In this document: positions 557 to 59,138 of the stretch, piece by piece
Layout of the letters: every line of letters begins with the position of its first letter
How positions within the stretch are numbered: the stretch's first letter is position 1
DNA from: Deltaproteobacteria bacterium
GTDB lineage: Bacteria > Myxococcota > Myxococcia > Myxococcales > 40CM-4-68-19
Assembly: GCA_005879805.1 (NCBI GenBank)
Contig: VBKL01000048.1
Location: 1,310 to 65,309 of the forward strand
Reading direction: 5' to 3'
DNA length: 64,000 nucleotides
Made by a program: the position numbers and the translations under genes
The notes under the pieces: model-generated
Seen by the model: only the letters and a program-made list of their open reading frames with translations
Databases searched by the model: none
Told to the model about the DNA's origin: nothing

Positions 557-587
557 ATGCTCCGCGCCTTCGCGCTCCGCCCGTCGC
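557..587 (+). repeat. Partial copy of dispersed ~50-bp hairpin repeat
   Basis: ATGCTCCGCGCCTTCGCGCTCCGCCCGTCGC matches the first 31 nt of the 23225 array unit at 30/31 positions. Confidence 0.85.
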
Positions 588-602
588 TGTCGCTCGCTGC
601 CC

Positions 603-1073
603 ATGGTCGTGTACGTTGCACTGGTGAATCCGCTCGAGCACGTACGGATCTTCTCGCTGCGGGAGGCGAACGCGCTGGTGCCCCGGCTGCAAGAGCAATT
701 CGAGCAGATCCGCGAGCTGCGCTCGGAGCTTCTCGCCGTCGAAGGCCAGCTGGCCTCGCTGGGTCACCCGATTTCCGAGCCCCACGAGGTCGATCCGCGA
801 GCCCCCGCCGCGGTGCAGCGACTGCAGCGGGTGGCGAAAGACCTCTTTGGCCAGATCGTCGGGATCCTGGGCGGGCTCGGCGAGCTGGGCATCGAGGTCA
901 AAGCGGCCGACGGCCTCGCCGATTTCCGCAGCCGCCTGCACGGCCGCACCGTCTATCTCTGCTGGCGGTTCGGCGAAGAGGCCATCACGCACTACCACGA
1001 GCTGCACGGCGGGTTCGCCGGCCGCCGCCCGCTCCCCGCGGACGGCGACTTCGTCGGCGACCTGTTGCAATGA
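603..1073 (+). CDS. DUF2203-family protein
   Basis: FSLREANALVP start, coiled coil, then GIEVK..DGLADF...VYLCWRFGE..ITHYH....GFAGRRPL. Start codon uncertain. Confidence 0.8.
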   Translation: MVVYVALVNPLEHVRIFSLREANALVPRLQEQFEQIRELRSELLAVEGQLASLGHPISEPHEVDPRAPAAVQRLQRVAKDLFGQIVGILGGLGELGIEVKAADGLADFRSRLHGRTVYLCWRFGEEAITHYHELHGGFAGRRPLPADGDFVGDLLQ

Positions 1074-1077
1074 CCGC

Positions 1078-1506
1078 TCAGTAGGAGATCGAGAGCGACA
1101 GCGATACGCAGTTCCCGCCAATCTTCTCGAATCCCGCAATGCAGGTGAAGTCGCACGAGCCGAAGACGCAGATCGGCGAACCGCCCGGAGGCGCGCCGCA
1201 CTGCGCGCAGGTCGGTCCGCAGCTGCTCTCGTCCTGCGGGACGCAGTCCTGTCCGCAACTGTGGAATCCGGCCGCTCCGCACCGGAAAGTGCATCTGCCT
1301 CTGAGACAACCCGCTACGAAGCCGGGGGGTATACCCGCGGTGCAGTCTTCGCAGACCTTCACCCCGCAATCTTCGGGGGTGTTGGTGCACGGGCCGTCGA
1401 CCACGATCGCGTGAGCGGTCCGTTCTCCGGGCGGAGCGACCTCGTTCGAGCCGCTTCCGCAGCCGAGCGAGACGAGCACCAAAGCCGTCGCAACCAGTTT
1501 CGCCAT
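1078..1506 (-). CDS. Cys-rich putative lipoprotein
   Basis: Signal peptide with lipobox-like SLGC, followed by many Cys in repeated CG..C..C / C..G.C.F.C patterns. Confidence 0.65.
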   Translation of the reverse strand: MAKLVATALVLVSLGCGSGSNEVAPPGERTAHAIVVDGPCTNTPEDCGVKVCEDCTAGIPPGFVAGCLRGRCTFRCGAAGFHSCGQDCVPQDESSCGPTCAQCGAPPGGSPICVFGSCDFTCIAGFEKIGGNCVSLSLSISY

Positions 1507-1532
1507 GGAAATCCCCCGTTCTTCGCGGCCGC

Positions 1533-2420
1533 TCAGAAGCTCGCCTCGCAGCTCACCTGGAGGCAGAAGGTCGCGCCAAGGAAGGCCGCTTGTGTCGACA
1601 CGACGGGCCAGACGACGGCGCCGGGAGCGACTGTGACATTCGGGAGATCGCTATCGACCCGCGTGCCGCTCGCCCAGGCGACGTCGGCAAACAGCGGTCC
1701 GGCCGAGGTGGAGAAGGAGAACGTCACGTTCGGCGCCTCGCGCGCGGAAGCGAAAGCACGGGTAGCGATGCAGGACCGCAGGTCAGGCGATACGGGAATG
1801 GTCGGCGGCGAGGCGAACGCAGACGCCGCGGCAAGGTAGACGCAGAGGTTGCGCGTGATTCGCGGCGTCGCCGTTCCTGTGCCACCCTTGGCGAGAGGCA
1901 AGAGAGGTACCCATGCCGAATCCAGCGTCCCGGAGAGTCCGGCCATGGGAATCCGATCCGCGGCCGCCTCATAGGAGGCGATCTCGTCGCCGCCGCCCTT
2001 CATGTGCGTCTGCGCGTGGGCCGCAGGCGTCGCGAGTAGCGCGTAAGGCGCGCTCGCCAGCGGCGTCCGCGGCGCCATCTCCGGATCGGAGCCGGCCGTG
2101 ATCCCCAGCCACAGTTGCCGGCCATCGACGACGGCTGCGAGAGACACCTGGCTCGACGCCGTTGCGCCGCCCGAGGAATCGCCCAGCACCACGTCGAAGA
2201 AGCCGTCCGACGGGTCCACGGAATGCTGCTCGGACCAGAGCGGCGCCCCGGCCGACGCAGTTTCGTAGAGTGCAAAGGTGATGGTCAGGGTCTGGTTGAC
2301 GGGCGACCCGTCCGCCTTGAGCAGCCGCCCCTGGTAGATCAGTTGCGCAGGTACGCCGCTCGCGAACGTTCCCGATGAAGCGAGCAGAGCGGCAGCGAGG
2401 ACTCGAACCGAAAAGCTCAT
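1533..2420 (-). CDS. Secreted protein with YQGRL N-terminal domain and tail-fibre-like motifs
   Basis: ATG 2420 (MSFSVRVLAAALLA, signal peptide); VPAQLIYQGRL..DGSP...ITFALY...LWSE...PR.PLASAPYAL; HAQTHMKGGGDEI and LPLAKGGTG motifs. Confidence 0.7.
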   Translation of the reverse strand: MSFSVRVLAAALLASSGTFASGVPAQLIYQGRLLKADGSPVNQTLTITFALYETASAGAPLWSEQHSVDPSDGFFDVVLGDSSGGATASSQVSLAAVVDGRQLWLGITAGSDPEMAPRTPLASAPYALLATPAAHAQTHMKGGGDEIASYEAAADRIPMAGLSGTLDSAWVPLLPLAKGGTGTATPRITRNLCVYLAAASAFASPPTIPVSPDLRSCIATRAFASAREAPNVTFSFSTSAGPLFADVAWASGTRVDSDLPNVTVAPGAVVWPVVSTQAAFLGATFCLQVSCEASF

Positions 2421-2421
2421 T

Positions 2422-2757
2422 TCAGCGCCCTTTCGTTTGCAACGAGACGCCATCCAGCGTCCGGTGCGTGGGGGATTGCGCAATCCAGGAAAGCTTGGAG
2501 GACCCGATCCAGCCGACCATCGAATAGGAGCGGGAGTGCATGAGGCCGCCGCCGCTCGAGAACGCGCCGACGACCTGCACCGGAGCGCGGCCGACGTCGG
2601 CGTCGCCCGGTTTCCAGCAGCGCCGGTCGGGAGCGCACTGGAAGCCCGAAGGGCAACGCCCGTCGGCCGAGCACGCCATCTGGCCGCTGCGGAGGTTCGG
2701 GTCGTAGCATGCCGCGCATAGGCCCAAGGCAAGCGCCGCGAGAAGGGTCCGCTTCAT
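2422..2757 (-). CDS. Small Cys-rich lipoprotein
   Basis: MKRTLLAALALGLCAAC lipobox; C.ADGRCPSGFQC....RC motif; ATGA overlap with the upstream TPR gene stop. Confidence 0.7.
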   Translation of the reverse strand: MKRTLLAALALGLCAACYDPNLRSGQMACSADGRCPSGFQCAPDRRCWKPGDADVGRAPVQVVGAFSSGGGLMHSRSYSMVGWIGSSKLSWIAQSPTHRTLDGVSLQTKGR

Positions 2758-3569
2758 CGCGCGACCTCGCCGGAAGGGACCGCTTCGATCAGGGGCCGCG
2801 AGGCCGCCCGGAAGAGGAGACCGCCCGCGCCGAATCCGACGGCAGCCGAGGCGAGCAGGATCCTCGAGAGCGTCTGTGCCTTCTGCCCCTTCGCATCGAG
2901 GCCCGGGTCGAAGGGACGGCCCGCGGCAGCGTCGCCTTGCATCTGAGCCGCCGCGCCGCGCGCCTCGAGGCCGAAGTAGACGGCGAACGCGAGGGAGGCG
3001 GCGGCGGCCCCCGTCGCGATCCACCCCGCCCGGCGGGTCGTCCAGAACGGAGCTGTCGCCTTCGCCGCCACCGCTTCGGGGGGCGCGGCGCGCAGGGCAG
3101 GTGCGGCCGCCGGAGCCACGAGAGCGGGCGTGCGCGGCATGGCCGCGATCGACGGCGCGCCGGGCGGCGGTGGAGGCGCCTCGGCGAGCGCTGGATTCTT
3201 CACCTTGCGCTCTTCGAGGATCGAGGCCAGCCGCTCGATCTTCGACTCCGCCTCGGCGCGATTCGCGGCGTCAGGCTTCCGCTCGAGATACGTCCGGTAG
3301 TAGCGAACCGCCTCTTCCGGACGGTTGGAGAGCCGGTACGCCTGGGCGATGTTGTAGAGGAGCCCGGGCGCGTCCTTGTAGCGGTAAGCCGCTTCGAACT
3401 CGGCGATGGCCTCGTCGTACTTGCCGAGGTCGAAGGCGCGCAGGCCCACCGCGTAGTGCTCGCGCGCCTTGCCCGCGTCTTCGCCGCGCGCCGCCGACGC
3501 GCATACGAAACCCGCGCCGAGCGCCACCGCGAACAGCCGCCGGAACCGGAAGGAACGGAAACGCTGCAC
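2754..3569 (-). CDS. Tetratricopeptide-repeat protein with signal peptide and C-terminal hydrophobic helices
   Basis: AREHY..G...FDLGKYDEAIAEFEAAY...LLYNIAQAYR...EEAVRYYRTYL TPR motifs, Pro/Ala linker, C-terminal TM-like segments. Confidence 0.8.
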   Translation of the reverse strand: MQRFRSFRFRRLFAVALGAGFVCASAARGEDAGKAREHYAVGLRAFDLGKYDEAIAEFEAAYRYKDAPGLLYNIAQAYRLSNRPEEAVRYYRTYLERKPDAANRAEAESKIERLASILEERKVKNPALAEAPPPPPGAPSIAAMPRTPALVAPAAAPALRAAPPEAVAAKATAPFWTTRRAGWIATGAAAASLAFAVYFGLEARGAAAQMQGDAAAGRPFDPGLDAKGQKAQTLSRILLASAAVGFGAGGLLFRAASRPLIEAVPSGEVAR

Positions 3570-3736
3570 GATGCCCCCTTTCGTCTCGCGACGGATCCGC
3601 CAGGGCCGGCAGACGCGCGATGACGAGACCCGGGAAGCTTGCCGGGGCGGAGTGGCACGGCACAGCGGTCAAGTGACGGAGCGCACACCGTCAGGTGGCG
3701 GATGCCGGGACCTCGAAAGACGGCGGCTGGGAAGCG

Positions 3737-4120
3737 CTACCGGCGGACCGCGATCATCTCGATCTCTACCCGCGCCCCCTTGGGCAGCGCGGCGACCTGC
3801 ACCGTCGAGCGCGCGGGCGGCGAGCCGCTGAAGCGCTTGCCGTAGACCTCGTTGACGACCGCGAAATCGGCGAGGTCGGCGAGGAAGATGGTGGTCTTCA
3901 CCACCTGGGCGAAGGAGGCAGAAGCGGCCTCGAGCACGCCGCGCAGGTTCTCCATCACCCGTTCGGCCTGCGCGCGGATGTCGCCCTTCACCATCTCCTG
4001 CGTCTTGGGATCGAGCGGAATCTGCCCGCTCGTGAAGACGAGATCGCCGGACACGATCGCCTGCGAGTAGGGTCCGATGGCCTTCGGGGCCTCGTCCGTC
4101 GCGATCACCTGGTTCGCCAT
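3737..4120 (-). CDS. ridA: RidA/YjgF family reactive imine deaminase
   Basis: APKAIGPYSQA, SGQIPLDP, PPARSTVQVAALPKGARVEIE motifs. Confidence 0.95.
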   Translation of the reverse strand: MANQVIATDEAPKAIGPYSQAIVSGDLVFTSGQIPLDPKTQEMVKGDIRAQAERVMENLRGVLEAASASFAQVVKTTIFLADLADFAVVNEVYGKRFSGSPPARSTVQVAALPKGARVEIEMIAVRR

Positions 4121-4170
4121 GGGCGCGCGGGATACCGGACGGCCCGCGGCGGGTCAAGCACGGAGCGCTC

Positions 4171-7421: not shown

Positions 7422-7428
7422 AAGAGGT

Positions 7429-8496
7429 CTAGGCCGGTTCCTGCTGCGTCATGCAGTGGACCGCGCCGAGTCCCCAGACCAGGTCCACGGAGTGGATTCC
7501 GACCACCCGCCTGTCCGGGAAAGCCTGCCCGAGCACTTCGAGGGCGCGGCGATCGTGGGCGTCGTTGAAGGTCGGGACCAGCACGACTTCGTTGCCCACG
7601 TAGAAGTTCGCGTAGCTCGCGGCGAGCCTCTGCCCCTCGAAATAGAGGGGCGAAGGCATGGGGAGCGGAACCACGTGGAGCGGATGGCCGTCCTGGTCCT
7701 TGGCCAGTTCCAGGCGGCGCCGCGCGTCGCGGAGCCGCTCGTGGTTCTCGTCGCGAGGATCGTCCTCCTGCGAGACCAGCACCGTGCGGGGACCGGCGAA
7801 GCGGGCGACGTCGTCGACGCGCCCGTGCGTGTCGTCGCCGGCGATGCCTTCGGCGAGCCAGAGGATGTGGCGGGCGCCGAGGCTCTCCCGCAGGACGTCC
7901 TCGATCTGCTCGCGAGAGAGATCGGGATTGCGCGCCTGCACCGGCGAGAGCAGCGACTCCTCGGTGGCGAGGAGCATTCCCCGTCCGTTCACGTCGATTG
8001 CGCCCCCTTCGAGGACGACGCGCTTCCCCTCCACCTCGGGGAACGCCTGCGGCAAGCCGAGCGCCTTGGCGAGGCGGTCGCCGGCGGCGGCGTCGTTCTT
8101 GTGGTTGCGGTACTTCGACCAGCCGTTGAAACGGAAGCTGAGCAGCACCGTGCCGCCGTCGCTCTTGTGCAAGAAGAGCGGCAGCGAGTCCCTCGTCCAG
8201 GAGCGGTCGGTGCGGATCTTGAAGAAATCGATGCGCGCGAGATCGACGCCGGTCCGCTCCAGCAACTGCCGCGCGGAGCGCTCGGAGGTGGCGTCGTTGA
8301 CCAGGATGCGGACCCGCTCGCCGACCGAGAGGTGGCGGACCACCTCTGCGAAGACCCAGGGAATGGGAGCGAACTTGCGGGGCCAGTCCGCGACCTGGTG
8401 CGGCCAGGCGATCCAGGTGGCCGCGTGGGCTTCCCATTCCGCCGGCATGCGGTACCCGCGCAGTGCAGGCTGGGGGATGGCGCGGGCTGGTCTCAA
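7429..8496 (-). CDS. aguA: Agmatine deiminase family protein (catalytic His apparently replaced by Arg)
   Basis: MPAEWE.H, WTRD, FNGW, LEGGAIDVNG, ASYANFY, GAVHCMTQQEP. TTG start at 8496 follows an AGGAG RBS. Confidence 0.9.
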   Translation of the reverse strand: MRPARAIPQPALRGYRMPAEWEAHAATWIAWPHQVADWPRKFAPIPWVFAEVVRHLSVGERVRILVNDATSERSARQLLERTGVDLARIDFFKIRTDRSWTRDSLPLFLHKSDGGTVLLSFRFNGWSKYRNHKNDAAAGDRLAKALGLPQAFPEVEGKRVVLEGGAIDVNGRGMLLATEESLLSPVQARNPDLSREQIEDVLRESLGARHILWLAEGIAGDDTHGRVDDVARFAGPRTVLVSQEDDPRDENHERLRDARRRLELAKDQDGHPLHVVPLPMPSPLYFEGQRLAASYANFYVGNEVVLVPTFNDAHDRRALEVLGQAFPDRRVVGIHSVDLVWGLGAVHCMTQQEPA

Positions 8497-8535
8497 ACGG
8501 CGAGTCTCCTGATCGCGTCCGGAAGGACGCCGGGG

Positions 8536-8633
8536 AAGGAGCGGGCTTTGTCCGCGACGGGCAGAGCCCGAAGGGTGGAGCGTCGGGAGGAGCGGGCTTT
8601 GCCCGCGACGGGCGGAGCCCGAAGGGCGGAGCA
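8536..8633 (-). repeat. Two tandem copies (51-bp period) of the dispersed hairpin repeat, inverted orientation
   Basis: GGAGCGGGCTTTG(T/C)CCGCGACGGGC(A/G)GAGCCCGAAGGG(T/C)GGAGC at 8538 and 8589 is a reverse-complement variant of the 53-bp unit. Confidence 0.9.
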
Positions 8634-8826
8634 CCGGTGGTGACTGCACACGAAAGAACCTCCCCCCGAGTGGAGCCTTCTAGCGGGCGCCATCGTGGAG
8701 CGCACCGTCGCAAAGCGGGAGCGCCGCTGTCAACCGGAAGCGATGGGAATGCAACGCGGCTCCGCACACAACTGTAACGGCGCGGCGAACGACTCGCAAC
8801 GATTCGAAATTACTATTGAATTATCG

Positions 8827-9954
8827 TCAGGACCCGGCCGATGGGAACGGCCACCACCACCGTCGCCCCTTTCGCGGTCCTTCCCCCTGCGGGGCGTTCT
8901 GGGCCTTGGGCGACGTCGGCGGCGTCGGAACGCGCAGGAGCGGCTCCGCCGCCTGCAGCGACGCTCGCTTCTCGCGAGCCTTGCCGGGGACGGCGAGAAG
9001 CTCGTCGCGGAACTGCTCGGCCGTCTGCGGGCGGCGCCCGGCGTCCTTCTCCAAGGAGCGCAGGATGAGCGTCTCCATCGCCTCGCTGATGGGCGCGTCC
9101 GGCTGTCGCTGCCGCGGCGGGATGGGACGGTCGTGCACCTGCTTGGTGAGGACTTCCATCGAGTTCGCGCCGTCGAACGGAAGATGGCCGGTCGCCATCT
9201 GGTAGAGGATGACGCCCACCGCGTACAGGTCGCAGCGGGCATCGAGATGCGTTCCGGTCGCCTGCTCCGGCGCCATGTACTGGGGGGTGCCGCAGACCAC
9301 GTCCACGCTGGTCAGCCCCGGTCCTTCGGCGTCGAGCAGCTTGGCGATTCCGAAGTCGAGGACCTTGACGAAGTCTTGCTGGTCGCGCCGGTCCTCGACC
9401 ATCACGTTCTCGGGCTTCAGGTCGCGATGGATGATGTTGTGCGCGTGCGCTTCGGAGAGCGCGGCGCAGACCTGGGCCATGATGTTGCAGAGGCGATCCT
9501 CCGCGAGCGGCCACTCGTCGCGCAGGATGACGCGGAGGTCCTTCCCCTGCACGAACTCCATCACGATGTAGAGGGTCCCGTCCTTCTCCTGGCGCCCGAA
9601 GTCGAGGACCTGGATCACGTTCGGATGGTTGAGCCTGCTCGCCGCCTTCGCCTCCCGCTCGAACCGCCCGACGATGGTCGGGTCCTCGAGCAGGGCCGGC
9701 TTGAGCATCTTCAGGACGACCGGACGATCGAGGGCGAGGTGGCGGGCGCGGTAGACCTTTCCCATGCCGCCCTGCCCGATCAGCTCCTCGACATGGAAGC
9801 GACCCGCGACCGTTCGCCCGACGAGGGGATCGGTCGACTTCGCCGCGAGCGGGCGGGTCTTGGGCTGCGACGGCGTGAGCGAGGCTCCGCAGTAGACGCA
9901 GAGAGCGTTCGCCGTGGGCGGCAGCGGCCGCAAGCAGCGAGGGCAGGACGGCAC
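8827..9954 (-). CDS. Hanks-type Ser/Thr protein kinase with N-terminal zinc ribbon
   Basis: CPRC...CVYC; IGQGGMGKVY, HRDLKPEN, DFG, GTPQYMAPE all intact. Confidence 0.95.
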   Translation of the reverse strand: MPSCPRCLRPLPPTANALCVYCGASLTPSQPKTRPLAAKSTDPLVGRTVAGRFHVEELIGQGGMGKVYRARHLALDRPVVLKMLKPALLEDPTIVGRFEREAKAASRLNHPNVIQVLDFGRQEKDGTLYIVMEFVQGKDLRVILRDEWPLAEDRLCNIMAQVCAALSEAHAHNIIHRDLKPENVMVEDRRDQQDFVKVLDFGIAKLLDAEGPGLTSVDVVCGTPQYMAPEQATGTHLDARCDLYAVGVILYQMATGHLPFDGANSMEVLTKQVHDRPIPPRQRQPDAPISEAMETLILRSLEKDAGRRPQTAEQFRDELLAVPGKAREKRASLQAAEPLLRVPTPPTSPKAQNAPQGEGPRKGRRWWWPFPSAGS

Positions 9955-14034: not shown

Positions 14035-14637
14035 TTAGCCGCCGGCGGAGCAGACACCCGAGAGGCAAAGCAGGCCGGTGCAGCAGGCCGCTCCCGTGGC
14101 GCTGCAGGCTGCGGTCTCCGGCAAGCAGACAGGAGGAGGCGGCGGCGGAGGCGGCGGCGGCGGAGCCTGCGGGTCGCACGCGCCCGGGTAGTCCCCATGC
14201 GCGATGTGAGCCCGCACGGCCGACTTGCCGACCCGGATCGTGTGCTCATTGCAATGGTTGCCGGGCGGAATGTGGCAGATGGTCACCTTGCAGTTCGCAT
14301 CGTCGTCGTCGGACTTCGACGACATGCTGAACGAGTGCGACGACAAGCTCTTCGACTGGTCGTGGTCGTCGTCGGAACCCTTGCACTCGTCGTCGTCCTT
14401 GTCGTTCGACTTGACGCTGAGCGAGGACTTGTCAGCGGACTTGTCGTGATCCCCCGACTCGTCGCACTCGTCCTTGTCGTCGCCCTTGCTCGACGCGTCA
14501 TACCGGCCGTCCGCCTTCGACATCGCGGACGTGTCCGACCTGGACGTCAGCGCGGTGCCGCTCGGAGCGCCGCCGCACGCCGACAGCAGCGCTGCCGAGA
14601 AACACATCACACTGATAGAAATCCATCGCGACTGCAT
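14035..14637 (-). CDS. Lipoprotein with acidic low-complexity tract, KVTICH motif, polyproline linker and Cys-rich tail
   Basis: LLSACG lipobox; D/K/S-rich tract; KVTICHIPPGN..HTIRV....AHIAHGD..GAC; ~10 Pro; C-x6-C-x6-CC-x4-C-x4-C tail. Confidence 0.75.
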   Translation of the reverse strand: MQSRWISISVMCFSAALLSACGGAPSGTALTSRSDTSAMSKADGRYDASSKGDDKDECDESGDHDKSADKSSLSVKSNDKDDDECKGSDDDHDQSKSLSSHSFSMSSKSDDDDANCKVTICHIPPGNHCNEHTIRVGKSAVRAHIAHGDYPGACDPQAPPPPPPPPPPPVCLPETAACSATGAACCTGLLCLSGVCSAGG

Positions 14638-22545: not shown

Positions 22546-23181
22546 TCACTGTCCGAAAAAATCGCCGAGCTTCTCGCGGAGCGCCAGCCTTGCGCGGTGC
22601 AGACGGCTTTTCACCGCCGGAACCGTGAGATCGAGCGCGGAAGCGATCTCCTCGTTGGAGAGCCCGTCGACGTCCTTGAGCAGGAACACGGTCCGATAAT
22701 CCTCCGGCAAGGCAGTGACCGCCTGGTCGATCGCCTGCCCCAGTTCGCGATCCATCATCTGCGTATCGGCCCTCTGGGACCAATCATTTTGTGGCTCGAG
22801 GAACCCTTCCACCGAGAATTTCGGTCCTTGGAGCTCCAACGGTTGGTCCTGCAAGGCATCGGGAGCGCGCCGCTTGCGCCGTAACCGCATCAGGGCGCTG
22901 TTCGCCGCAATGCGGTAGAGCCAGCTCGAGAACTGGGCCTCTCCCCGGAAATTGGGCAGTTTCTGGTAGGCGTTGAGGAAGGCTTCCTGGAGCACTTCCT
23001 GGGCGTCGGCCTCGCTCCCCGTCATGCGCAAGGCAAGCCGGTAGAGCTGCCGCTGGTGGCGCGCCACCAGCTCCGCGAAGGCGGCGCCGTCGCCGCGCTG
23101 GGCTCTTTCGACGAGCTCGCGGTCCTCGGGCTGTGCGCCCTGGCCCGCCGCAGCGGGCGCCTGTGCTGGCTGATCCGCCAT
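22546..23181 (-). CDS. ECF sigma-70 factor
   Basis: DRELVERAQ.GD..AFAELV, DAQEVLQEAF, FSSWLYRIA.N, region 4 VKSRLHRAR. Confidence 0.95.
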   Translation of the reverse strand: MADQPAQAPAAAGQGAQPEDRELVERAQRGDGAAFAELVARHQRQLYRLALRMTGSEADAQEVLQEAFLNAYQKLPNFRGEAQFSSWLYRIAANSALMRLRRKRRAPDALQDQPLELQGPKFSVEGFLEPQNDWSQRADTQMMDRELGQAIDQAVTALPEDYRTVFLLKDVDGLSNEEIASALDLTVPAVKSRLHRARLALREKLGDFFGQ

Positions 23182-23224
23182 CGAGGGGCCGCGACCCTAG
23201 GATACGCGCCGGATCCGGTCAAGG

Positions 23225-23539
23225 ATGCTCCGCGCCTGCGCGCTCCGCCCGTCGCAGGCAAAGCCCGCTCCTCTCCAATGCTCCGCGCCTGCGCGCTCCG
23301 CCCGTCGCAGGCAAAGCCCGCTCCTCTCCAATGCTCCGCGCCTGCGCGCTCCGCCCGTCGCAGGCAAAGCCCGCTCCTCTCCAATGCTCCGCGCCTGCGC
23401 GCTCCGCCCGTCGCGGGCAAAGCCCGCTCCTCTCCAATGCTCCGCGCCTGCGCGCTCCGCCCGTCGCGGGCAAAGCCCGCTCCTCTCCAATGCTCCGCGC
23501 CTGCGCGCTCCGCCCGTCGCGGGCAAAGCCCGCTCCTCC
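23225..23539 (+). repeat. Tandem array, 6 x 53 bp, no spacers
   Basis: Unit ATGCTCCGCGCCTGCGCGCTCCGCCCGTCGC(A/G)GGCAAAGCCCGCTCCTCTCCA starts at 23225, 23278, 23331, 23384, 23437 and 23490; the last copy is slightly short. Confidence 0.97.
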
Positions 23540-23540
23540 G

Positions 23541-24712
23541 TCATTCGGGGAAAATCTTGCCGGGATTCAGGAGATTCTCCGGATCGAACGCGTGCTTGAG
23601 CCGCCGTTGCAGCTCGATGACCGGGGCGGACTGCTCGCGGGAAAGGAACGGGCGCTTGGCGAGACCCACGCCGTGCTCCCCGGTGATGGTGCCGCCGAGG
23701 CGCAGCGCCGCGTCGAGCACCTCGATGACCGCCTCCTCTCCCTCGTGGCGCTGTTCCAACGAGTCGAAGAGCAGGTTCACGTGGAGGTTGCCGTCGCCGG
23801 CGTGCCCGTAGCACGCGGTCGGCAGACCGTGTTTCTCGCCGATGCGGCGGACCTCGCGGATGAGGTCGACGAGCTTCCCCCGCGGGACGGCCACGTCCTC
23901 GCTGATCTTGAACGGGCGGATATCGGTGAGCGCAACCGAGGTCATCCGGCGGGTCTCCCACAGCTTGCGGCGCTGCGCCTCGTCCTGCGCTGCGAGTACG
24001 TCGATCGCGCCCTGCTCCGCGCAAAGCTCGCCGCTCCGGGCGAGCTCCTCGGCCACGCCGTCGCCGTGCCCATCGAACTCCACCAGCAGCGCTCCGCCGA
24101 CTCCTTCGGGAAACTTGAACGGTGCGCGCGGCGCCACGGTCCGCATGGTCGGTCCGTCGAACAGCTCGCAAGCCCGGGGAAGCAGGCCGGCATCGAAGAT
24201 GGCCTGGACCGAGGCGGCTGCCTCGTCCTCGCTGTGGAACAGCGCGAGCATCGTCTCCACCCGGCGAGGGAGGGGGATGAGCTTGAGGGTTGCCTCGGTG
24301 ATGACGCCGAGGGTCCCTTCGCTCCCGACGAGCAGGTGCACGAGGTCGTACCCGGCAACGCCCTTCCAACTGCGGTGAGAATCACTCCGGGCTGCACGAC
24401 GCAGACCATGTCGGCGCGCGAAATCTCGACGATGCGGTCCATCTTCTCCAGGGAAAGAATGATCCCGCCCCGCTCGGCGAGCGCGCCGCCGCTCTTGCCG
24501 CTGCCGGCGCCGCGCGGCACGACCGGGATCCGCGTCTCGCGGGAGTAGCGGAGGATCTTCGCCACCTCCTCGGCGCTGCGAGCCAGGACCACCGCCTGCG
24601 GAGGGAACTTGCCGAGGCCGCTCTCGTCCTGCTCGTAGGCCGCGGCGCGCTCGCCCTGCGGGAGCACGGTCGCGCCGGGCACGAGGCGAGAAAGATCGTC
24701 GACGAGACTCAT
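23541..24712 (-). pseudogene. glcD: FAD-linked oxidase (GlcD/D-lactate dehydrogenase family) with internal deletion and frameshift near 24370
   Basis: N-part (PVVPRGAGSGKSGG...VQPGVIL) and C-part (KGVAGYDL..LLVGSEGTLG...GHAGDGNLH...GEHGVG...NPGK) are in different frames; the PDP/GGN..NAGG/KYG segment is absent. Confidence 0.8.
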
Positions 24713-37820: not shown

Positions 37821-39478
37821 TCACTCATCCGTGGAGAGCGCGGCGACGACCGATTCCCGGCGCGTCTCGAAAAGTCGAGCGGCAAAGGCGAGCAGGCCGC
37901 CGTAAGCGAAGCTCATCGCGACGGCCAGTCCTGCGTAGGCGACGGCGGCGGGCAATCCGAGAACCGCGGCGATCGCGAACGGTCCCCAAGCGGCGAGGCT
38001 CAAGAGCAGGAGCGCGAACATGCGCGATCCGACGGGACCGCTCCCTCGCACCCTCCGCAGGCGCATCCCGCGGACCGGTACCGGCCAGAGGATGCTGGAG
38101 ACGTTTCCGACGGTGGCGAGGAGCGGGAAGAGCGCCAGGTGCGCGAGGAGAGCGATCGCCACCTGCTCCGCCGTCACCGGCCCCGTCGCGACGGCCACGA
38201 CGATCAGCGCGGCGAAGATGAGGACCGAGAAGACGTAGGCGACCGCGTTCTTGGCGACGAGGACGGCGCGGGGCGAGACCGGCCAGAGGAACCACGCCCG
38301 CGCTCCGCCGAGATCGCGCCCGAAACAATTGGTGGCGAGCTCCAGCACGCCGAGGTGCGCGTAGACCGCGGCGAAGAGGAGCGGCTCGCGGCGGACGAAT
38401 CCCGCGGCGTCCCGGAAGAAGACCGACCGCAAGACGAGGAAGCCGACCGACACCAGGATGATCTGGAGCCAGCCGACGCGCAGAACCGTCTTCGCCTCCT
38501 TCTCGACGAGCGCGGCGAGGCGGTCGGGGACCCCCGGGATCCGCCAGCCCCTGCTCTTCACCTTCGCCGACGGCGCCACAGTCACCTCGGCGGGACGCCG
38601 CGCTTCCCGGAGCGAGACGACGTGCGCGAGAGAGGCGCTGGCGAGACCTACGGCGAAAAGGAGAAAGGCGAAGGCAAGCGCGGGTAGCACGGCGCCGCTG
38701 GAGACATCCGCCGCGAAATGGGCGGCCCAGCCGGGCGGCGTGTACTCGACCGCCTTCCACGCGCTGCCGGCGAAGAGGCTCCCGACGCCGCGGCGGCCTG
38801 CCTTGGCGAGGCCGAGTTGGAACGAAGTGAACGCCGCGGCGAAGAAAACGACGCTGGCGATGCGGCGCACGGCGGGATGCGCATCGAGCGCTCCGGAAAG
38901 GGTGGCGACGAGGTGCAACAGGCCCGCTACCGCCCAGACGCAGAGGACCTCGGCGCTTAGAAGCGCGACCGGTCCGGGCATGCCGGGAATCCGCGATCCC
39001 GCGAAAGCCATCGCGAAAAGGATCGGCCAGAAGAAGAGCCAGGCCGGATCGAGCAACTCCGCCGCAAAGTTGAGCGCCGACACGAGGCGCGGAGGCACGG
39101 CGAAGACGAGGAAGCGGCGGGGATCGAAGAGGGCGCCGCTTTGTCCGCGGGGAAGCAGCGCGAACCAGATCCGCGCGAGGAGCACGCCCGCGAGCCAGGT
39201 GGCGAAGATGGCTACCGCTCCGCCCCGCGCCTCGACGCGCCCCGGAGCGTGCTGCAACTCGACGGCCTTGCCCCACACCGCCACTGCCACGCCACAGCTC
39301 ACCGCGAGGCCGAGCAGGACGGAGAGGATGGAGAGAACGAGCCGCCCCCATTCGCGGCGCCGCGCGATCCTCCGCAGTGACAGCGTGAATCGCAGCCAGA
39401 GGAGCGCCCGGGCCTGGTCGCCGTATCCTCCGGCCTTCGACCTCCGCCCGTCCCCGGCGAGGCCAACTCCTGCCACCG

Positions 39479-39482
<4 letters not shown>
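37821..39482 (-). CDS. Multi-pass membrane protein, probable ABC exporter permease
   Basis: Many TM segments, AALVEKE.K..LR and NCFG.D motifs; GTGA overlap with the ABC ATPase stop. Confidence 0.75.
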
Positions 39483-41730
<2,248 letters not shown>

Positions 41731-43842
41731 CTAGTTGCTGCCTGTCGAGCTGCCGCCGCCGCGGATCTCGCCCACGATCCGGCTCGCGCCGTAGATGTGA
41801 TCGAGCGCCTCCATCAGCGCCGGGCTCGACACCGAGACCGACCGGTTCACGCTTGGATCGAACCAGTACTCGCCGCCGAGCGACTGGATGTTTCCGTCGA
41901 AGATGAGGCCGACGACCTCCAGCTTGGCATTGAAGAGCGGCGAGCCGCTGTTCCCGCCGATGATGTCGTTGCTCGTCGCCAGATCGAACGGCGTGTTCAA
42001 GTTGAGCCGCCCGTCTTGCTTGGCGACGTTCCAGCTCTTCGGCAGCGCGAATGGCTCGCGCCCCGTGGCGCGGTCGAACGCTCCGCCCATGGCGGTGATC
42101 GGGTTCACGTGGTGGCCGTTCTCGTCGTATCCCTCGACCGATCCGTAGCTCAAGCGGAGCGTGAAGGTCGCGTCCGGATAGTTGCTGGTGCCTTCGAGCT
42201 TGAACCGGGCCTTCGCGATCTTGCCCTGGTTGCGCTTCTCCACCGAGTCGACTCCGTGCTCGTACGCCGCGCGAACCTCGCGGGCGGCCGGATCCACCAG
42301 GCGGGCGAGCTGGATCATCGGATCGTTCGAAGCGTCGATGGCCGCCTTGCCGCCTTCGAAGAGCTGCTTGCGGACGGCGAGGTCCTTGAGCTTGCTCCCC
42401 GTCACGAGCTCGCGAGCGAGGTCATCCGGCGACCTGGTGCCGAACACCTTGCGCACGAGCGCGTCGTCGGGACCGAGCACTTCGCGGAGCTTGGTGAGGG
42501 CGAAGCGCAAAGCCTCCATCTCGTAGTCGTCATGCACGGGGGCGGAGGAGAAGAGCTTCTGCTTCAGCGCCGGCAGCGCGGAGTCGACGTACTCGCGGAG
42601 CCGCTCCTCGTTGGGCTTCTGCAGCTCTTCCGCGGCGCGAACGAGATAGCGGGCATTCCGGAAGTACGTCGTATTGATCACGCTGAAGCCGCGCGGCCGG
42701 ATGAAGGTGCCGGAGTTGGTCGGCCCTCCTTCCAGCGTGTAGAGGCGATCGTGGAGCTCTTTCGCCTTCTCCACCGACCTGGCGATCTCGTCCCAGGCGC
42801 CGGCCACCGCCTTCGTTCCCTTGGTCTTCTGCTGCAGCGCCTGCTCGGTCCGCTCTTTCAGGTTGAAGAGCTTGGGATCGATCAGCGCCTCGCGGCGTCC
42901 CTTGAGCGCCTTGTAGCTGTTCTCGACGGTGAAGAGGTCCGCTTCCGCGGTGCGGTGCTGCTCGGGACCGCGGCGTGTGTACTCGGTCAAGAAGCCGCGC
43001 ACCTGCGCGTAATACGTCAGCGAGTCGGGAAGGGCCACGTCGCGCTCGTAGCGGAGCTGCGCGACGGTCAGCTCCCGATCGGTCCCGCCCGGATGGCCGG
43101 AGACGAAGGTGAGGTCGCCGTCCTTGGCGCCCCCCTGCGACCACCGGAAGTAATGGTCGGTATGGAAAGGCTTCCCGTCGTCGTAGGCGCGGAGGAACGA
43201 CACGTCGAGGTCGTAGCGCGGGAAGTTGAAGTTGTCGGGATCGCCGCCGAAGAAGGCGATGGCGAACTCGGGCGCGAAGACGAGGCGCACGTCCTGGAAG
43301 CGGCGGTACTTGTACAGATCGTAGCGGCCGCCGTGGTAGAGCGTGACGACGTCGCAGCGCACCTTGGCGTCGCCGCCGGCGCACTCCTTCTCGATCTTCG
43401 CCAGCGCGCCCTTCTCGGCCTTGCCGAACTTCTCGCCGGAAAGCCCGTCTGTCGCCGCGGTCACCCGCGAGGTGACGTCGGAGATCTGCACGAGCTGGTT
43501 GAGCTCGATCTCCGGGCACTTCACCTCCTCTGGCTGCGTCTTCGCGTAGAAGCCTTCCTTGACGAAGTCCCTGTCCTTGGTCGAGAGCTGCTCGATACAG
43601 GTGTGGGCGCAGTGGTGGTTGGTCATCACCAGTCCGTCGGCGGAGACGAAGCTGCCCGAGCAGCCTCCAGCGAGCCGGACAGACGAGAGCCGCGCCGCCT
43701 CGAGCCAGCGGTCGTCGGGGTTGAATCCGTACTTCTTGGAAACCTTGTCCTTCGGGAAATTGTCGTAGGTCCACATGCCTTCGTCGGCGCGCGCGGCGAA
43801 TGCCACAGCGAGCCCGAAAGCGAGCGCAGCCAATCGATTCAT
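41731..43842 (-). CDS. S46 family dipeptidyl peptidase
   Basis: Signal peptide, ADEGMW, TNHHC, YPDATFTLRLSYG, DIIGGNSGSP, GLIFDGN. Confidence 0.95.
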   Translation of the reverse strand: MNRLAALAFGLAVAFAARADEGMWTYDNFPKDKVSKKYGFNPDDRWLEAARLSSVRLAGGCSGSFVSADGLVMTNHHCAHTCIEQLSTKDRDFVKEGFYAKTQPEEVKCPEIELNQLVQISDVTSRVTAATDGLSGEKFGKAEKGALAKIEKECAGGDAKVRCDVVTLYHGGRYDLYKYRRFQDVRLVFAPEFAIAFFGGDPDNFNFPRYDLDVSFLRAYDDGKPFHTDHYFRWSQGGAKDGDLTFVSGHPGGTDRELTVAQLRYERDVALPDSLTYYAQVRGFLTEYTRRGPEQHRTAEADLFTVENSYKALKGRREALIDPKLFNLKERTEQALQQKTKGTKAVAGAWDEIARSVEKAKELHDRLYTLEGGPTNSGTFIRPRGFSVINTTYFRNARYLVRAAEELQKPNEERLREYVDSALPALKQKLFSSAPVHDDYEMEALRFALTKLREVLGPDDALVRKVFGTRSPDDLARELVTGSKLKDLAVRKQLFEGGKAAIDASNDPMIQLARLVDPAAREVRAAYEHGVDSVEKRNQGKIAKARFKLEGTSNYPDATFTLRLSYGSVEGYDENGHHVNPITAMGGAFDRATGREPFALPKSWNVAKQDGRLNLNTPFDLATSNDIIGGNSGSPLFNAKLEVVGLIFDGNIQSLGGEYWFDPSVNRSVSVSSPALMEALDHIYGASRIVGEIRGGGSSTGSN

Positions 43843-50755: not shown

Positions 50756-50766
50756 GCGAGCCGGAA

Positions 50767-53101: not shown

Positions 53102-53117
53102 CGTAGGCTCGGGCGGC

Positions 53118-53576: not shown

Positions 53577-53584
53577 GGGGCCCG

Positions 53585-54184: not shown

Positions 54185-54267
54185 GGCGGGGCGGAGGGTA
54201 GCCCCTGCACGCCGGGCCGGCAAACCTCATTGACGGCGCCGCGCGGCACGGGCGAGCATCGGCCGCA

Positions 54268-55205: not shown

Positions 55206-55209
55206 GCGA

Positions 55210-55779: not shown

Positions 55780-57415
55780 AGCCTTGGGCTCCGCTGGCCG
55801 CGGGGGCGGCAGGGTCGAGGCGCACGTCCACGCAGGCCACCTTGCCGGAGGCGAGCGCGCGTTCCAGCGCCGGGCGGACCTTCGCCGGATCCTCGACGTG
55901 CTCGCCGTACCCTCCGAACGCCTCGACCACCTTGTCGTAGCGCGTCGGCGCTAGCAGGGTCGCCGGGCTCTTCTCCGGCCCGAAGAACTCGAGCTGCGGA
56001 AGCCGGATCTGTCCCCAGGAAGCGTCGTTTCCCACCACGCACACCATGGGCAGGTCGAAGCGCACGGCGGTCTCGAAATCCATCCCGTTGAGCCCGAAGC
56101 TGCCGTCTCCCTGGATGACGAAGATCGGCCGCGACGGGTGGAGCAGCTTCGCCGCAAGCGCGAACGGCGCTCCGACGCCCAGGCACCCCAGCGGGCCGGG
56201 ATCGAGCCAGCGTCCTGGCTTCTGCAACCGGATCACCTTCGCCGCGATGGCCACCCAGTTGCCGCCGTCGGCGACGAACATGGGATCGCCGGCGGCGCGG
56301 GCCACCTCGTCCAGCTCCCTGGCGAGCCGGAAATGATGGATGGGCGTCTGGTCGCTCTGCTCGAAAGCGCGCTGCTTCTCGGCCTTCTTGGTTTCGCGCT
56401 CGCGCAGATGCTTGAGCCAGGCACCGCCGGGCCGGCCGCGCGAAAGAGCTTCGGAGAGCTGCCCGAGGACGCTCCGAGAATCGCCCACGAGGCCAACCTC
56501 GACCGCGCGATTGCGCCCGATCTCGGACGCGTCCGCGTCGATCTGGACGATCTTGGCATCCGGCGAGAACCCCGCGCCGTAACCGAGCCGGAAATCGAGC
56601 GGCGTTCCCGCGACCACCACCACGTCGGCCTCGGAGAGCGCGTCCTTGCGGGTGTGAGTGAAGAAATTCGGGTGCTCGGGTGGCAGCGATCCCCGGCCGG
56701 CGCCATTCAGGTACACGGGCGCCCCGGTCCGGTCGGCTAGCTGCGCGAGCGCTTCCGGGGCGTCGTCCCACCAGATCGAGCTTCCCGCGATGATCGCCGG
56801 GCGCTCGGCTCGCTCGAGGAGGCGCGCGGCGCGGGAGACGAACTCGGGGTCGCTCTGCACCCGCGCTCGGGTCCGGTAGCCGGTCGGCAACTTCGCCTCT
56901 TCGTCGTCGGCTCCGTTGGAGAGGACGTCCCACGGCACCTCGAGGAAGACCGGTCCCGGCCGGCCCGAGAGCATGGTGCGGAAGGCGCGCGCGAGATAGG
57001 TCGGAACGCGGTCGGGGGCCGGAATCCGATCCGACCACTTGGTGATGCGGGTGAAGAGATCCACCTGCTCCATTTCCTGGAGCGATCCCCTTCCTGCGTT
57101 GAACGTCGGGGCAGCGCCGCCCAGCAGGAGGAGCGGGCTCGAGGCCGCGTAAGCGTTGGCCACGCCCGTGAGCGCATCGGTGACGCCGGGGCCGGCGGTG
57201 ACCGCGACGACCCCGACGCCGCGAGTCAGCCGCGCGTACGCGTCGGCGGCGTGGGTCGCGGCTTGCTCGTGGCGCGTGTCGACGATTGCGATCCCTTCCT
57301 CGACGCAGGCGGCATAGATGGGGGCGATGTGCAGGCCGCAGAGCGTGAAGAGATGGCGCACGCCCTCGGCCTTCAGCATGCGGGCAAGAAGCTGGGCTCC
57401 GCTGGACGTCGCCAT
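55769..57415 (-). CDS. ThDP-dependent enzyme (acetolactate synthase-like / 2-hydroxyacyl-CoA lyase family)
   Basis: RHEQAA.HAAD.YAR, TAGPG.T, PGPV, DPGP.GCLGVG, GDGSFG...GND..WG. Confidence 0.9.
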   Translation of the reverse strand: MATSSGAQLLARMLKAEGVRHLFTLCGLHIAPIYAACVEEGIAIVDTRHEQAATHAADAYARLTRGVGVVAVTAGPGVTDALTGVANAYAASSPLLLLGGAAPTFNAGRGSLQEMEQVDLFTRITKWSDRIPAPDRVPTYLARAFRTMLSGRPGPVFLEVPWDVLSNGADDEEAKLPTGYRTRARVQSDPEFVSRAARLLERAERPAIIAGSSIWWDDAPEALAQLADRTGAPVYLNGAGRGSLPPEHPNFFTHTRKDALSEADVVVVAGTPLDFRLGYGAGFSPDAKIVQIDADASEIGRNRAVEVGLVGDSRSVLGQLSEALSRGRPGGAWLKHLRERETKKAEKQRAFEQSDQTPIHHFRLARELDEVARAAGDPMFVADGGNWVAIAAKVIRLQKPGRWLDPGPLGCLGVGAPFALAAKLLHPSRPIFVIQGDGSFGLNGMDFETAVRFDLPMVCVVGNDASWGQIRLPQLEFFGPEKSPATLLAPTRYDKVVEAFGGYGEHVEDPAKVRPALERALASGKVACVDVRLDPAAPAASGAQGYAI

Positions 57416-57457
57416 GGCGCGGAGAGTACCGCGCGCGCCCGGCCGGTGCATCCGATC

Positions 57458-58150
57458 TCAGCGGCCCGGGCTCCCCTTGGGGAGGAGGGCGCCCAGGCAG
57501 ATCATCCAGGCGAATCCCGCGAAGCGCGCGAGCGGAAGGAGCCAGGCGGCGAACGGCACCACGAAGGTGAGGACGGAGAGCTCGGCGGCCGCCGCGATGG
57601 CGAAGCCGAAGTACATCAGCCAGCGGGGGACGAGCCCGGGCAGACCGGCCACCGCGGACGCGCCGGCGACGAGGAGCCCGAAGCTCGCGATGCAGGCCGG
57701 TCCTCCGGTTGCGAACGACAGCAAGTGGAGAGGTCGCGTGACGGCCGGGATCTCCGAAACGCCCGGTTGCGAGATCACCCACAGGCTGCACGCGGCGGCG
57801 GCCTGGAAGACCGAGGCGAGAAGGCCGCCGGCGAGCGCGATGTGCACGCCCGCGACGCGCATGCCGAGGAACAAGAGGCGACTCGCCACGGTGGCAGTGA
57901 AGACGGCGAGGGGAATCGCCGCGCCAAGCTGGAAGAAGGCCAGCGCGCGCACCGCCGGGGCCTGCGCGGCGAACCAGGCGTCGGAAGGGCCGCGGGGCGC
58001 GAAGGGCGAGGGAAAGGCGCCGCCCATGGCGGCGGAGATGACGAGGCCCACGATGACCAACGCCGCATGAACGGCAGCAACCACGATCAGCGGAGGTCCA
58101 CGATGAAGCACTTCCGCCCGGCCGCCGACTGGCTCGATCGTCGATTCCAT
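57458..58150 (-). CDS. Membrane protein (DUF4386-like)
   Basis: About six hydrophobic helices; GL.PRWL..FG near the C-terminus. Confidence 0.65.
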   Translation of the reverse strand: MESTIEPVGGRAEVLHRGPPLIVVAAVHAALVIVGLVISAAMGGAFPSPFAPRGPSDAWFAAQAPAVRALAFFQLGAAIPLAVFTATVASRLLFLGMRVAGVHIALAGGLLASVFQAAAACSLWVISQPGVSEIPAVTRPLHLLSFATGGPACIASFGLLVAGASAVAGLPGLVPRWLMYFGFAIAAAAELSVLTFVVPFAAWLLPLARFAGFAWMICLGALLPKGSPGR

Positions 58151-58163
58151 GTCGATTCCCTCG

Positions 58164-59069
58164 CTAGGGGACGAGGAGGATCTTCCCCACTCCGCCCTTC
58201 TCCGCGACCTTCTGCGCCTCTCCGGCCTGTGCGAGCGGGAAGGTCTTCTCGATCGGGATCTCGAGCTCGCCTCGCGCCACCGCCTCGGCCATCTCGCGCA
58301 AGCGCTTCGAGTCAGGATGCGCGAGGAAGGCCTTGACGCGCAGATCGCGTCCCTTGGCGCCGGCCGGCTCGCCGACGACGCTCCCGACCGCTCCGCCCTT
58401 GCGGATCTTCGGGAGGAGCTTTTCGGTGGTCGCGCCACCGACCGTGTCGGCGACCGCGTCGAGCTCTGGCAGGCGCGAGATCTCGCCTTCGTCGTCGAGG
58501 GCGACGACTTGCTCGGCGCCGAGCTTCTGCGCCTCGGCTTTCTGCTTCGCGCGGACGCCGGCGATCACGCGCGCGCCGAGCTTGCGGGCGGCGTACACGG
58601 CGGCTCGGCTCACGGCGCCCACCGCTCCTGTCACCAGGACGAGCTCTCCCTTGCGCGGCCTCGTCGCCTCTTCGATGAGCTGGGCGCCGGTGAGCACCAC
58701 GAGCGGCAGTGCCGCGGCCTTCTGGAGATCGAGACCGTCGGGGATCCGCGCGAAACCTTCCTGCGCGTCCACCACGTACTCCGCGTACCCGTGGTGGACG
58801 AGCCCGAGCACCTTGTCGCCGGTCTTGAAGCCGGTGACGCCCGGACCGACCTTCACGACGGTCCCCGAGACGTCGCGGCCCAGGATGGCTGGCAGCTGCA
58901 AGGGCATCATCTTCTGCATGCCGCCGCTCCTCAGCTTCCAGTCCACCGGGTTGATGCTTGCCGCGGCGACCTTCACCTTCACCTCGGAAGGACCCGGTTC
59001 CGGTTCGGGAACGTCGCGCAGGACGAGCTTGTCCACGTCACCGTAAGCCGTGAGGACGACCGCTTTCAT
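58164..59069 (-). CDS. NADP-dependent oxidoreductase (zinc-independent MDR/quinone reductase family)
   Basis: MKAV...YG, INPVDWK, GRDVSG, GKILL. Confidence 0.9.
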   Translation of the reverse strand: MKAVVLTAYGDVDKLVLRDVPEPEPGPSEVKVKVAAASINPVDWKLRSGGMQKMMPLQLPAILGRDVSGTVVKVGPGVTGFKTGDKVLGLVHHGYAEYVVDAQEGFARIPDGLDLQKAAALPLVVLTGAQLIEEATRPRKGELVLVTGAVGAVSRAAVYAARKLGARVIAGVRAKQKAEAQKLGAEQVVALDDEGEISRLPELDAVADTVGGATTEKLLPKIRKGGAVGSVVGEPAGAKGRDLRVKAFLAHPDSKRLREMAEAVARGELEIPIEKTFPLAQAGEAQKVAEKGGVGKILLVP

Positions 59070-59089
59070 GATGACCTCCGCCCGACCGT

Positions 59090-59138
59090 ATGCTACGCGC
59101 TGCGCGCTCCGCCCGTCGCCGGCAAAGCCGGCTCCTCC
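59090..59138 (+). repeat. Single copy of dispersed hairpin repeat with compensatory changes
   Basis: ATGCTACGCGCTGCGCGCTCCGCCCGTCGCCGGCAAAGCCGGCTCCTCC. Confidence 0.9.

Follow-up and report, generated by a model that had tools for sequence, protein, structure and literature searches.

A repeat of about 54 nt is scattered over the 64,000-nt stretch of DNA considered here (the window), which is part of contig VBKL01000048.1 from a metagenome-assembled genome (MAG) titled Deltaproteobacteria bacterium and placed in the Myxococcota. The repeat is probably a selfish, non-autonomous mobile DNA element found specifically in a clade of uncultured soil Myxococcota. Insertions are exact and comprise one or several units; their sites differ among close relatives, and the head-to-tail arrays that they form vary in length. 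Some genomes, but not others, have seen a steep rise in copy number. A reading of the window's letters alone (the original prediction) had proposed an undescribed non-autonomous dispersed family akin to repetitive extragenic palindromes (REPs), or else a structured RNA motif. The undescribed, non-autonomous, dispersed repeat family is supported; it has no Rfam match, and its two hairpins are kept through compensatory change. The other two elements of the proposal fare less well.

The case for mobility draws on orthologous sites that are filled in one genome and empty in another, on array lengths, on contrasts in copy number within one genus, on genome-specific stem subfamilies, and on the decay of a resident copy. 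All genomes compared are MAGs; that of the window (G000) comprises 291 contigs and 5.02 Mb, with 68% G+C and 88% completeness. Two sites within the window are polymorphic: the single copy near 41.6 kb and the six-copy array near 23.2 kb are each absent in five of five congeners. A third lies in an Hsp70-like gene on contig C83, where an exact 54-nt insertion (...CCCTGG/GAGGAGC...CATACGGT/GAC...) is absent in the five congeners that aligned; of eight congeners, two more had matches that were not aligned and one had no match. The comparison also runs in the opposite direction. Among arrays from other MAGs, 59 have enough flanking sequence, and for 32 of these both flanks fall on one G000 contig in one orientation. 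The G000 gap is at most 12 nt, an empty site, at 23 of the 32 and holds a truncated 42-nt copy at one; the rest are ambiguous. Insertion sites are mostly unshared between relatives. Array length varies as well: one orthologous site (L051 and L066) holds a single copy or two depending on the MAG, and the longest array contains seven (L038).

Abundance varies just as widely. G000 holds about 75-90 copies at 64 loci: an nhmmer search with a six-copy profile gives 89 matches at E≤1, with 75 left when the cut-off is tightened to E<1e-4 (64 loci), and a covariance model gives 90 at E≤0.001. The further copies expected outside the window are therefore many. The covariance model finds matches in eight of eight congeners, seven of them with 5-11 and one (G005) with 137, so that copy number within this one genus ranges from 5 to 137. 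These numbers are lower bounds, because at most 136 candidates were scored per genome and because repeats break MAG assemblies.

Across the order the pattern is patchy, with covariance-model matches in 25 of 41 genomes. In the family-level group f1, 19 of 24 genomes match, with 0-43 matches each; elsewhere there are matches in three of three genomes of f5, the one genome of f7 (44 matches) and, weakly, one of three in f4. Families f2, f3, f6, f8, and f9 gave no covariance-model match. An exact 28-nt pattern, searched with one genome per species, retrieved 67 matching stretches from 15 assemblies, all titled Myxococcales or Deltaproteobacteria bacterium bar one titled Casimicrobiaceae. This last (L007) is a single perfect copy in a MAG assigned to a betaproteobacterial family, and could be a case of mis-binning or of transfer. 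The window stretch itself is present in soil metagenomes of 13 studies.

No match to a described family came from Rfam or from the literature searched. Rfam gives nothing at gathering thresholds across the whole window, and over the array region (23100-23650) only two sub-threshold, chance-level matches (E 2.9 and 4). [quoted passage not shown]

The unit is compact: some 49-50 conserved bases, and 53-56 bases as inserted, typically 54. Its G-rich strand carries, in order: (C)GGAGGAGC; hairpin A (GCSGGC-TTT-GCCSGC); GACGGGC; GGAG; hairpin B; GGAGCAT; and two to five variable bases. Base frequencies are random outside the C before GGAGGAGC and a few bases past GCAT. Hairpin B is a GC stem of 4-5 bp with the GNA-type loop that had been predicted: GCA, GAA, or GGA when read along the GGAG-rich strand. 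The aligned copies hardly vary in the linker GCGACGGGCGGAG, again as predicted. Three or four unpaired GGAG motifs are present per unit, in sense orientation.

Both main hairpins covary. Among 102 model-aligned copies (97 distinct), 96.4% of the pair cells in hairpins A and B hold standard pairs, compared with 84.6% in 500 shuffles, none of which (0 of 500) reaches 96.4%. Sliding the partners by 1-3 columns leaves pairing in 29-41% of cells. The covariation score is 0.251, versus 0.069 in the shuffles, and compensatory changes are concentrated at three pairs: CG 44, GC 37, and GU 12 in hairpin A; and CG 54 with GC 37, and CG 62 with GC 11, in hairpin B. The 5' mini-stem that had been proposed beside them does not hold up, with pairing in only 58.6% of cells. 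(The alignment was fitted to the model and the copies are related, so these figures lean towards structure and overstate independence.) The stem variants are evident in the raw sequences: GGCC, GCGC, GCCC/GGGC, GUGC/GCAC, and GCGGGC versus GCCGGC. The dominant stem subfamilies are genome-specific, in a sample biased by the search pattern.

The two strands are not equivalent. Folding favours the G-rich strand: of 121 distinct copies, 119 are more stable on this strand with RNA parameters (-24.9 versus -19.7 kcal/mol), and 120 with DNA parameters. A frequent variant, GCCTGC, forms a G-U or G-T pair on this strand and an A-C mismatch on the other. The compensatory changes suggest that selection acts on source copies to keep both hairpins, which would be what the mobilising machinery recognises. 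What is recognised is probably the G-rich strand in single-stranded form as DNA, given that it is the better folder and bears the GNA triloops. A copy that is merely resident does not maintain its structure: one copy, in a glutathione S-transferase (GST) gene, is common to G000 and G005, and in G005 its length is kept and both hairpins are destroyed.

Where do copies insert? Gene models were taken from a crude codon-usage caller. In co-directional spacers the element usually fills nearly the whole spacer, with 0-20 nt remaining on each side. At three loci (C19, C273:9353, and C158:34290) GGAGCAT is followed by 2-3 nt and then ATG, so that the last GGAG of the unit is the sole Shine-Dalgarno motif. 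Judged from such sequences, it is plausible that this GGAG serves, as a side effect, as a ribosome-binding site at some loci. At C19 a TACAAT -10 box and the ATG are parted by the element; in the same gene of a relative (G006) only about 9 nt separate them. A count of start-adjacent copies made after masking the elements, 51 of 62 loci, was rejected as partly an artefact, because masking makes the gene caller start genes after the element. Convergent spacers, 10.5% of all spacers, hold about three of the 64 G000 loci and none of 74 loci in other MAGs.

Other copies lie within genes. Translation through the copies puts at least nine of the 64 G000 loci, perhaps 13-20, in frame within open reading frames (ORFs); a stricter coding-potential test finds seven and misses known cases. 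The original description of the repeat as intergenic thus fits the copies in the window, but not the family as a whole. Pfam domains span or flank the copy in the same frame in six genes: the Hsp70-like gene; the GST gene; a PilQ-type secretin gene (between AMIN domains); an amino-acid permease gene; an ABC-2 permease gene; and comEC. Three proteins carry a copy in an N-terminal linker after a signal peptide or propeptide (a Tat-signal aldo/keto reductase, PurF, and a lipocalin-like protein), and three or four C-terminal tails are extended by one (ScpB, RlmN, QueA, and a partial copy after DAHP synthase). At least three reading frames are used. On C140 an array of three units with a 54-nt period precedes the S1 domains of a large protein; given the predicted start, it would be translated as an 18-residue segment repeated three times. 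The aldo/keto-reductase copy (G000:C242) is absent in five congeners. The G005 ortholog of this locus (L118) has a separate copy just before the ATG, and the in-frame copy of G000 lies about 70 nt further on; the two are independent insertions at neighbouring sites.

Copies presumably persist because they do little harm. Nearly all frames are free of stop codons (351 of 381 in sense and 379 of 381 in antisense orientation), so a 54-nt insertion adds 18 in-frame residues. Moreover, the several GGAG motifs of a sense unit would leave the downstream ribosome-binding site unblocked, and could replace it.

Orientation is strongly biased. The G-rich strand is sense at 36 of 47 orientable G000 loci (unmasked gene calls; binomial p 3.5e-4): 20 of 27 in co-directional spacers, with seven antisense, and 16 of 20 where a called gene overlaps the copy. 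Records from other MAGs agree, with 46 of 56 sense (p 1.2e-6), and include 13 divergent and no convergent spacers. Stop codons do not explain the bias, since sense and antisense frames alike are nearly all open. At 12 loci with a gene on the local minority strand, seven copies go with the gene and five with the majority. The bias of about 80% may stem from the insertion mechanism or from selection, and its cause may be linked to replication or to transcription. GC skew was rejected as a replication marker, because it follows the coding strand. Local skew in G000 is opposed to the gene-majority strand, agreeing with it at only 19 of 64 sampled regions (one at each locus); this implies that the coding strands of G000 are C-rich, and that skew is no guide to replication direction on these contigs.

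Such a sense bias also suits a different explanation, in which the repeat works in cis as RNA (for instance as a translation enhancer, a standby site for ribosomes, or a 5' stabiliser), kept for its function in mRNA and spread by its benefit to downstream genes. About 77-82% of orientable copies are sense. In many cases the copy lies in a very short spacer and stops 0-20 nt ahead of a start codon, and the C19 copy occupies the leader of a gene that is nearly leaderless in a relative. The unpaired GGAG motifs, the better folding of the sense strand, and the hairpin-A variant that pairs as G-U on the sense strand (12 of 97) and mismatches as A-C on the other all point the same way. As the main explanation, however, an RNA function is quite improbable. 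Copies are found upstream of -35 boxes at the 23.2-kb and 41.6-kb loci, within ORFs (where at least three frames are used), and in antisense orientation at 11 of 47 loci. Their sites are unconserved between close relatives, copy number runs from 0 to 137 among relatives, the old GST copy has lost its hairpins, and the genes downstream of the window copies are, by Pfam, functionally unrelated to one another. Contigs of one RNA run gave no cover of the copies. Nor was a CsrA-type partner found: the idea of a CsrA sponge, suggested by the many GGA triplets per array, was rejected for want of a CsrA match in G000, which is 88% complete. A likeness to sigma-54 promoters, seen by eye (GG-N10-GC across hairpin A), was also rejected, as common loop variants break the TTGC.

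If the repeat moves as DNA, a candidate mobiliser is a genomic Y1 HUH transposase resembling the REP-associated tyrosine transposases (RAYTs), acting in trans on single-stranded DNA as for elements of the REP/REPIN type (REPINs being paired REPs) or for palindrome-associated transposable elements (PATEs) derived from IS200/IS605. G000 has six Y1_Tnp matches in Pfam, paralogs about 75-83% identical in DNA, and one has 'REP-associated tyrosine transposase' as its best NCBIfam match, at 38.7 bits against a cut-off of 80. A conserved tetranucleotide precedes each hairpin, GNA triloops favour DNA hairpins, and the orientation bias is of the kind expected for strand-specific single-stranded-DNA transposition. 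In f1 the Y1 family is present in 20 of 24 genomes and the element in 19, with the same four lacking both, but this co-occurrence is confounded by shared ancestry. Involvement of the Y1 genes is nevertheless unlikely. No family copy lies within 500 nt of any of the six loci (nhmmer E≤10), and the covariance model with filters off gives only weak matches near them (best E 0.012); a Y1 or RAYT gene flanked by copies, which the original prediction had suggested looking for, was thus not found, and its remark that the window holds no cognate transposase is correct. The Y1 genes are flanked instead by an 18-nt motif of their own (28 hits, with up to 3 mismatches). Y1_Tnp is without a match in two of the three highest-copy relatives, G005 (137 copies; completeness 100%) and G030 (44 copies; completeness 95%), although in MAGs absence is not proof, and f5 and f7 genomes with 6-44 copies lack a Y1 protein of the G000 type. 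Inverted doublets, a conserved flanking target tetranucleotide, and TnpB were not found either. A 31-nt hairpin about 100-190 nt upstream of three Y1 genes shares GCGACGGGC and AGCATCC with the element; a link between the two was rejected, the alignment being no better than that of 7-8% of random genome windows. For the diverged, RAYT-like Y1 paralogs the count is 6-9 in G000 and reaches 45 among relatives; genera that likewise lack the repeat showed none.

Insertion might also proceed with no transposase at all. Copies could be pieces captured from a small, abundant single-stranded DNA of the kind made by retrons (msDNA), or templated insertions made by microhomology-mediated repair, as the variable junction microhomology of 0-5 nt, the want of an evident fixed duplication, and the want of a transposase associated with copies would allow; by eye, roughly half of the empty sites inspected have at the junction a GGAG-like motif that becomes the 5' GGAG of the element (an impression, uncontrolled). 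All insertions nevertheless start and end at nearly the same phase of the unit, unlike random template switching, and RVT_1 gives no match in the nine genomes of the genus, two high-copy genomes included. On the latter ground a retron or reverse-transcriptase origin was rejected, and capture or repair of this sort is very improbable indeed. A further proposal is that a frame-transparent 54-nt element with its own ribosome-binding motifs would spread, in its highest-copy hosts, without a recognisable transposase (neither Y1 nor reverse transcriptase), and would home to sense-strand sites that resemble GGAG or a Shine-Dalgarno motif, perhaps where transcription exposes single-stranded DNA. This proposal is tentative, and rather unlikely.

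Several observations weigh against a selfish mobile repeat. Searches for Y1_Tnp, TnpB, and RVT_1 did not reveal the mobilising enzyme. Terminal inverted repeats are lacking: the ends, GAGGAGC... and ...GGAGCAT, present direct GGAGC motifs that are not complementary. Nor is a fixed target duplication evident; junction ambiguity spans 0-5 nt (GA, GAC, TGAC, GACC, CGATG, GGAGG), and automatic junction finding was clean for only about six of 16 pairs, owing to divergence of the flanks. Only ten of 83 solo copies have the exact 5-mer that precedes GAGGAGC again just after the element, versus 3.1 expected (P 0.0015), a weak sign of a short duplication. Comparison of filled and empty sites cannot by itself separate insertion from precise deletion, and the sites in conserved genes rest on parsimony. 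Contigs from three soil-metagenome DNA runs show no empty allele and no joint that skips a copy; they break at 41626 and 41675, with continuations that disagree, as a repeat would give. Finally, counts of orientation and of in-ORF copies are approximate with so crude a gene caller, and the copy numbers, all from MAGs, are minima.

The element is intermediate in kind between three known repeat systems, and fails defining tests of each. It resembles the REP/REPIN-RAYT system in being short, GC-rich, hairpin-forming, and dispersed in tens to hundreds of copies; in compensatory stem change; in the tetranucleotide by each hairpin; and in the presence of RAYT-like genes in the genome. However, its arrays are all head-to-tail with a period of 52-55 nt, whereas REPINs and bacterial interspersed mosaic elements are inverted pairs; no RAYT gene is flanked by its copies; and it has a strong sense bias. 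REPs are extragenic and typically follow genes, whereas the element is rare in convergent (3'-3') spacers and occurs in some ORFs. In both anatomy and habitat, then, the REP-like label of the original prediction fails.

Rickettsia palindromic elements (RPEs), as a review describes them (PMC10969869), are likewise small non-autonomous repeats found in frame within unrelated conserved protein genes, to which they add a peptide segment. In-frame insertion into conserved genes is what the 54-nt Hsp70-like insertion and the Pfam domains around copies in six genes display. Set against that description, the present element is shorter (54 nt, versus about 100-150 bp for RPEs, or about 150 bp by the review), belongs to another host phylum, is mostly intergenic, and carries Shine-Dalgarno-like motifs; moreover, its use of at least three frames means that it encodes no single conserved peptide.

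Mycobacterial interspersed repetitive units (MIRUs), as known from PMC12548453 and from general background, are units of about 50 nt that form variable head-to-tail arrays, oriented with the genes, in short co-directional spacers at or near start codons, and are thought to be mobile with little effect on expression. Gene-oriented, variable arrays in operon spacers are found here too, with one versus two copies at one site and 20 sense versus seven antisense copies. The ORF that defines a MIRU is a coupled one, its stop codon and the downstream start sharing an overlap of 4 nt; this is not a feature of the element. A MIRU-like coupled small ORF was considered and rejected: the TTG/GTG frame from loop A ends on the downstream start in three of 19 cases, and one-base differences in length change the frame. 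Unlike MIRUs, the element also lies in ORFs and upstream of promoters, and it is apparently unrelated to them in sequence. With MITEs and PATEs it shares non-autonomy, burst-like copy numbers, and genome-specific subfamilies. In contrast to these, it is far shorter than is typical, lacks terminal inverted repeats, and shows no clear target duplication of fixed length, and no autonomous partner with the same ends was found.

Within the window, the repeat had been reported at five loci, and direct reading confirms all five; the list was incomplete, a sixth and diverged copy having been overlooked (Table 1). The partial copy retains an intact 3' half (GACGGGCGGAG, hairpin B, and GGAGCATCC) and has lost its hairpin-A half. 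It lies in the spacer between two divergent genes, which Pfam identifies as GNAT (up to 516, - strand) and DUF2203 (603-1073, + strand). The pair of copies exemplifies the minority orientation, being antisense to both of its - strand flanks: a PAD_porph deiminase gene (7429-8448) and a Ser/Thr kinase gene (8827-9933). (The covariance model scores its second copy, 8581-8638, at 78.6 bits; the first, 8530-8587, is an nhmmer find and was included in alignment A1.) The six-copy array is bounded on one side by the TGA stop of an FAD-oxidase gene (23541-24341, - strand) and on the other by the -35 box (TTGACC) in the promoter of an extracytoplasmic function (ECF) sigma-factor gene (22546-23181, - strand). 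The diverged copy sits at the junction of an ABC ATPase gene (39479-40267, - strand) and the next - strand ORF (37821-39482), and may lie within the first codons of the latter. The copy near 41.6 kb separates a terminator-like hairpin, which follows an S46 peptidase gene (41731-43842, - strand), from the -35 box (TTGACG) of the thiC promoter; this promoter, TTGACG-N17-TACTGT, is conserved, and thiC spans 40264-41568 on the - strand. A DUF2461 gene (stop 59148) and a zinc alcohol-dehydrogenase gene (start 59069) are separated by a 78-nt spacer, which the last copy fills. This copy has variant stems in both hairpins, GCCGGC/GCCGGC in A and GCGC-GCA-GCGC in B, and no orthologous flanks for its site were found in five congeners.

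Table 1. Repeat copies in the window, with the strand that bears the GGAG-rich sequence, and Y1_Tnp loci of G000 (contig:positions)
Feature	Position	Read directly at	Strand	Support
Partial/degenerate copy	553..604	555-587	-	Covariance model, 34.6 bits, E 4e-7
Two head-to-tail copies	8530..8638	8534-8635	+	nhmmer, covariance model
Six-copy head-to-tail array, 53-nt period	23221..23544	23223-23540	-	Tandem Repeats Finder (TRF) score 607, 99% matches
Diverged copy	39421..39478		-	73% to reference; covariance model, 46.5 bits, E 1.3e-10
Single copy	41622..41679	41626-41676	-	Covariance model
Single copy	59086..59143	59090-59140	-	Covariance model
Y1 locus	C70:11947-12555			Pfam Y1_Tnp
Y1 locus	C52:13514-14116			Pfam Y1_Tnp
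Y1 locus	C132:9264-9875			Pfam Y1_Tnp
Y1 locus	C266:21934-22407			Pfam Y1_Tnp
Y1 locus	C119:16688-17239			Pfam Y1_Tnp
Y1 locus	C26:3-404			Pfam Y1_Tnp

Some neighbouring sequences merit mention in their own right. The terminator-like hairpin directly after the S46 peptidase gene is a GC-rich inverted repeat at 41680-41712 (GCGGCCGGCGG...CCGCCGGCCGC) without a clear T run. Between the thiC promoter-like boxes and the ATG (41569-41621) there are only about 50 nt, with no thiamine pyrophosphate (TPP) riboswitch, the window having no Rfam match; so short a leader, and the lack of a TPP riboswitch, are unusual for thiC. Upstream of the ECF sigma-factor gene (23181-23222, and the orthologous loci L098-L102), a conserved TTGACC-N17-TAGGGT promoter stands about 15 nt before the ATG with no Shine-Dalgarno motif, which suggests that the mRNA is nearly leaderless. 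Orthologs of C19 and C158:34290 have similarly short leaders. At 14132-14172, TRF reports a short tandem repeat of the GGAGGCGGCGGC type (periods 12-15 nt).

This family adds a well-defined small mobile repeat to a phylum for which none was found described in the literature searched. One very short unit here unites traits otherwise known separately: its hairpins covary as in REPs, its arrays stand at gene starts as in MIRUs, and it inserts in frame into proteins as RPEs do. Such repeats have practical consequences: they break MAG assemblies, mislead the calling of gene starts, and create species-specific 18-residue inserts in conserved proteins. Moreover, the existence of high-copy genomes with no match to an HUH or reverse-transcriptase enzyme makes the family a clean test case for how elements of this sort move. 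Should homing without a transposase prove true, it would be a new mechanism of mobilisation, and the repeat would rank as the smallest mobile element known to rewire translation starts and also to insert 18-residue segments into conserved proteins.

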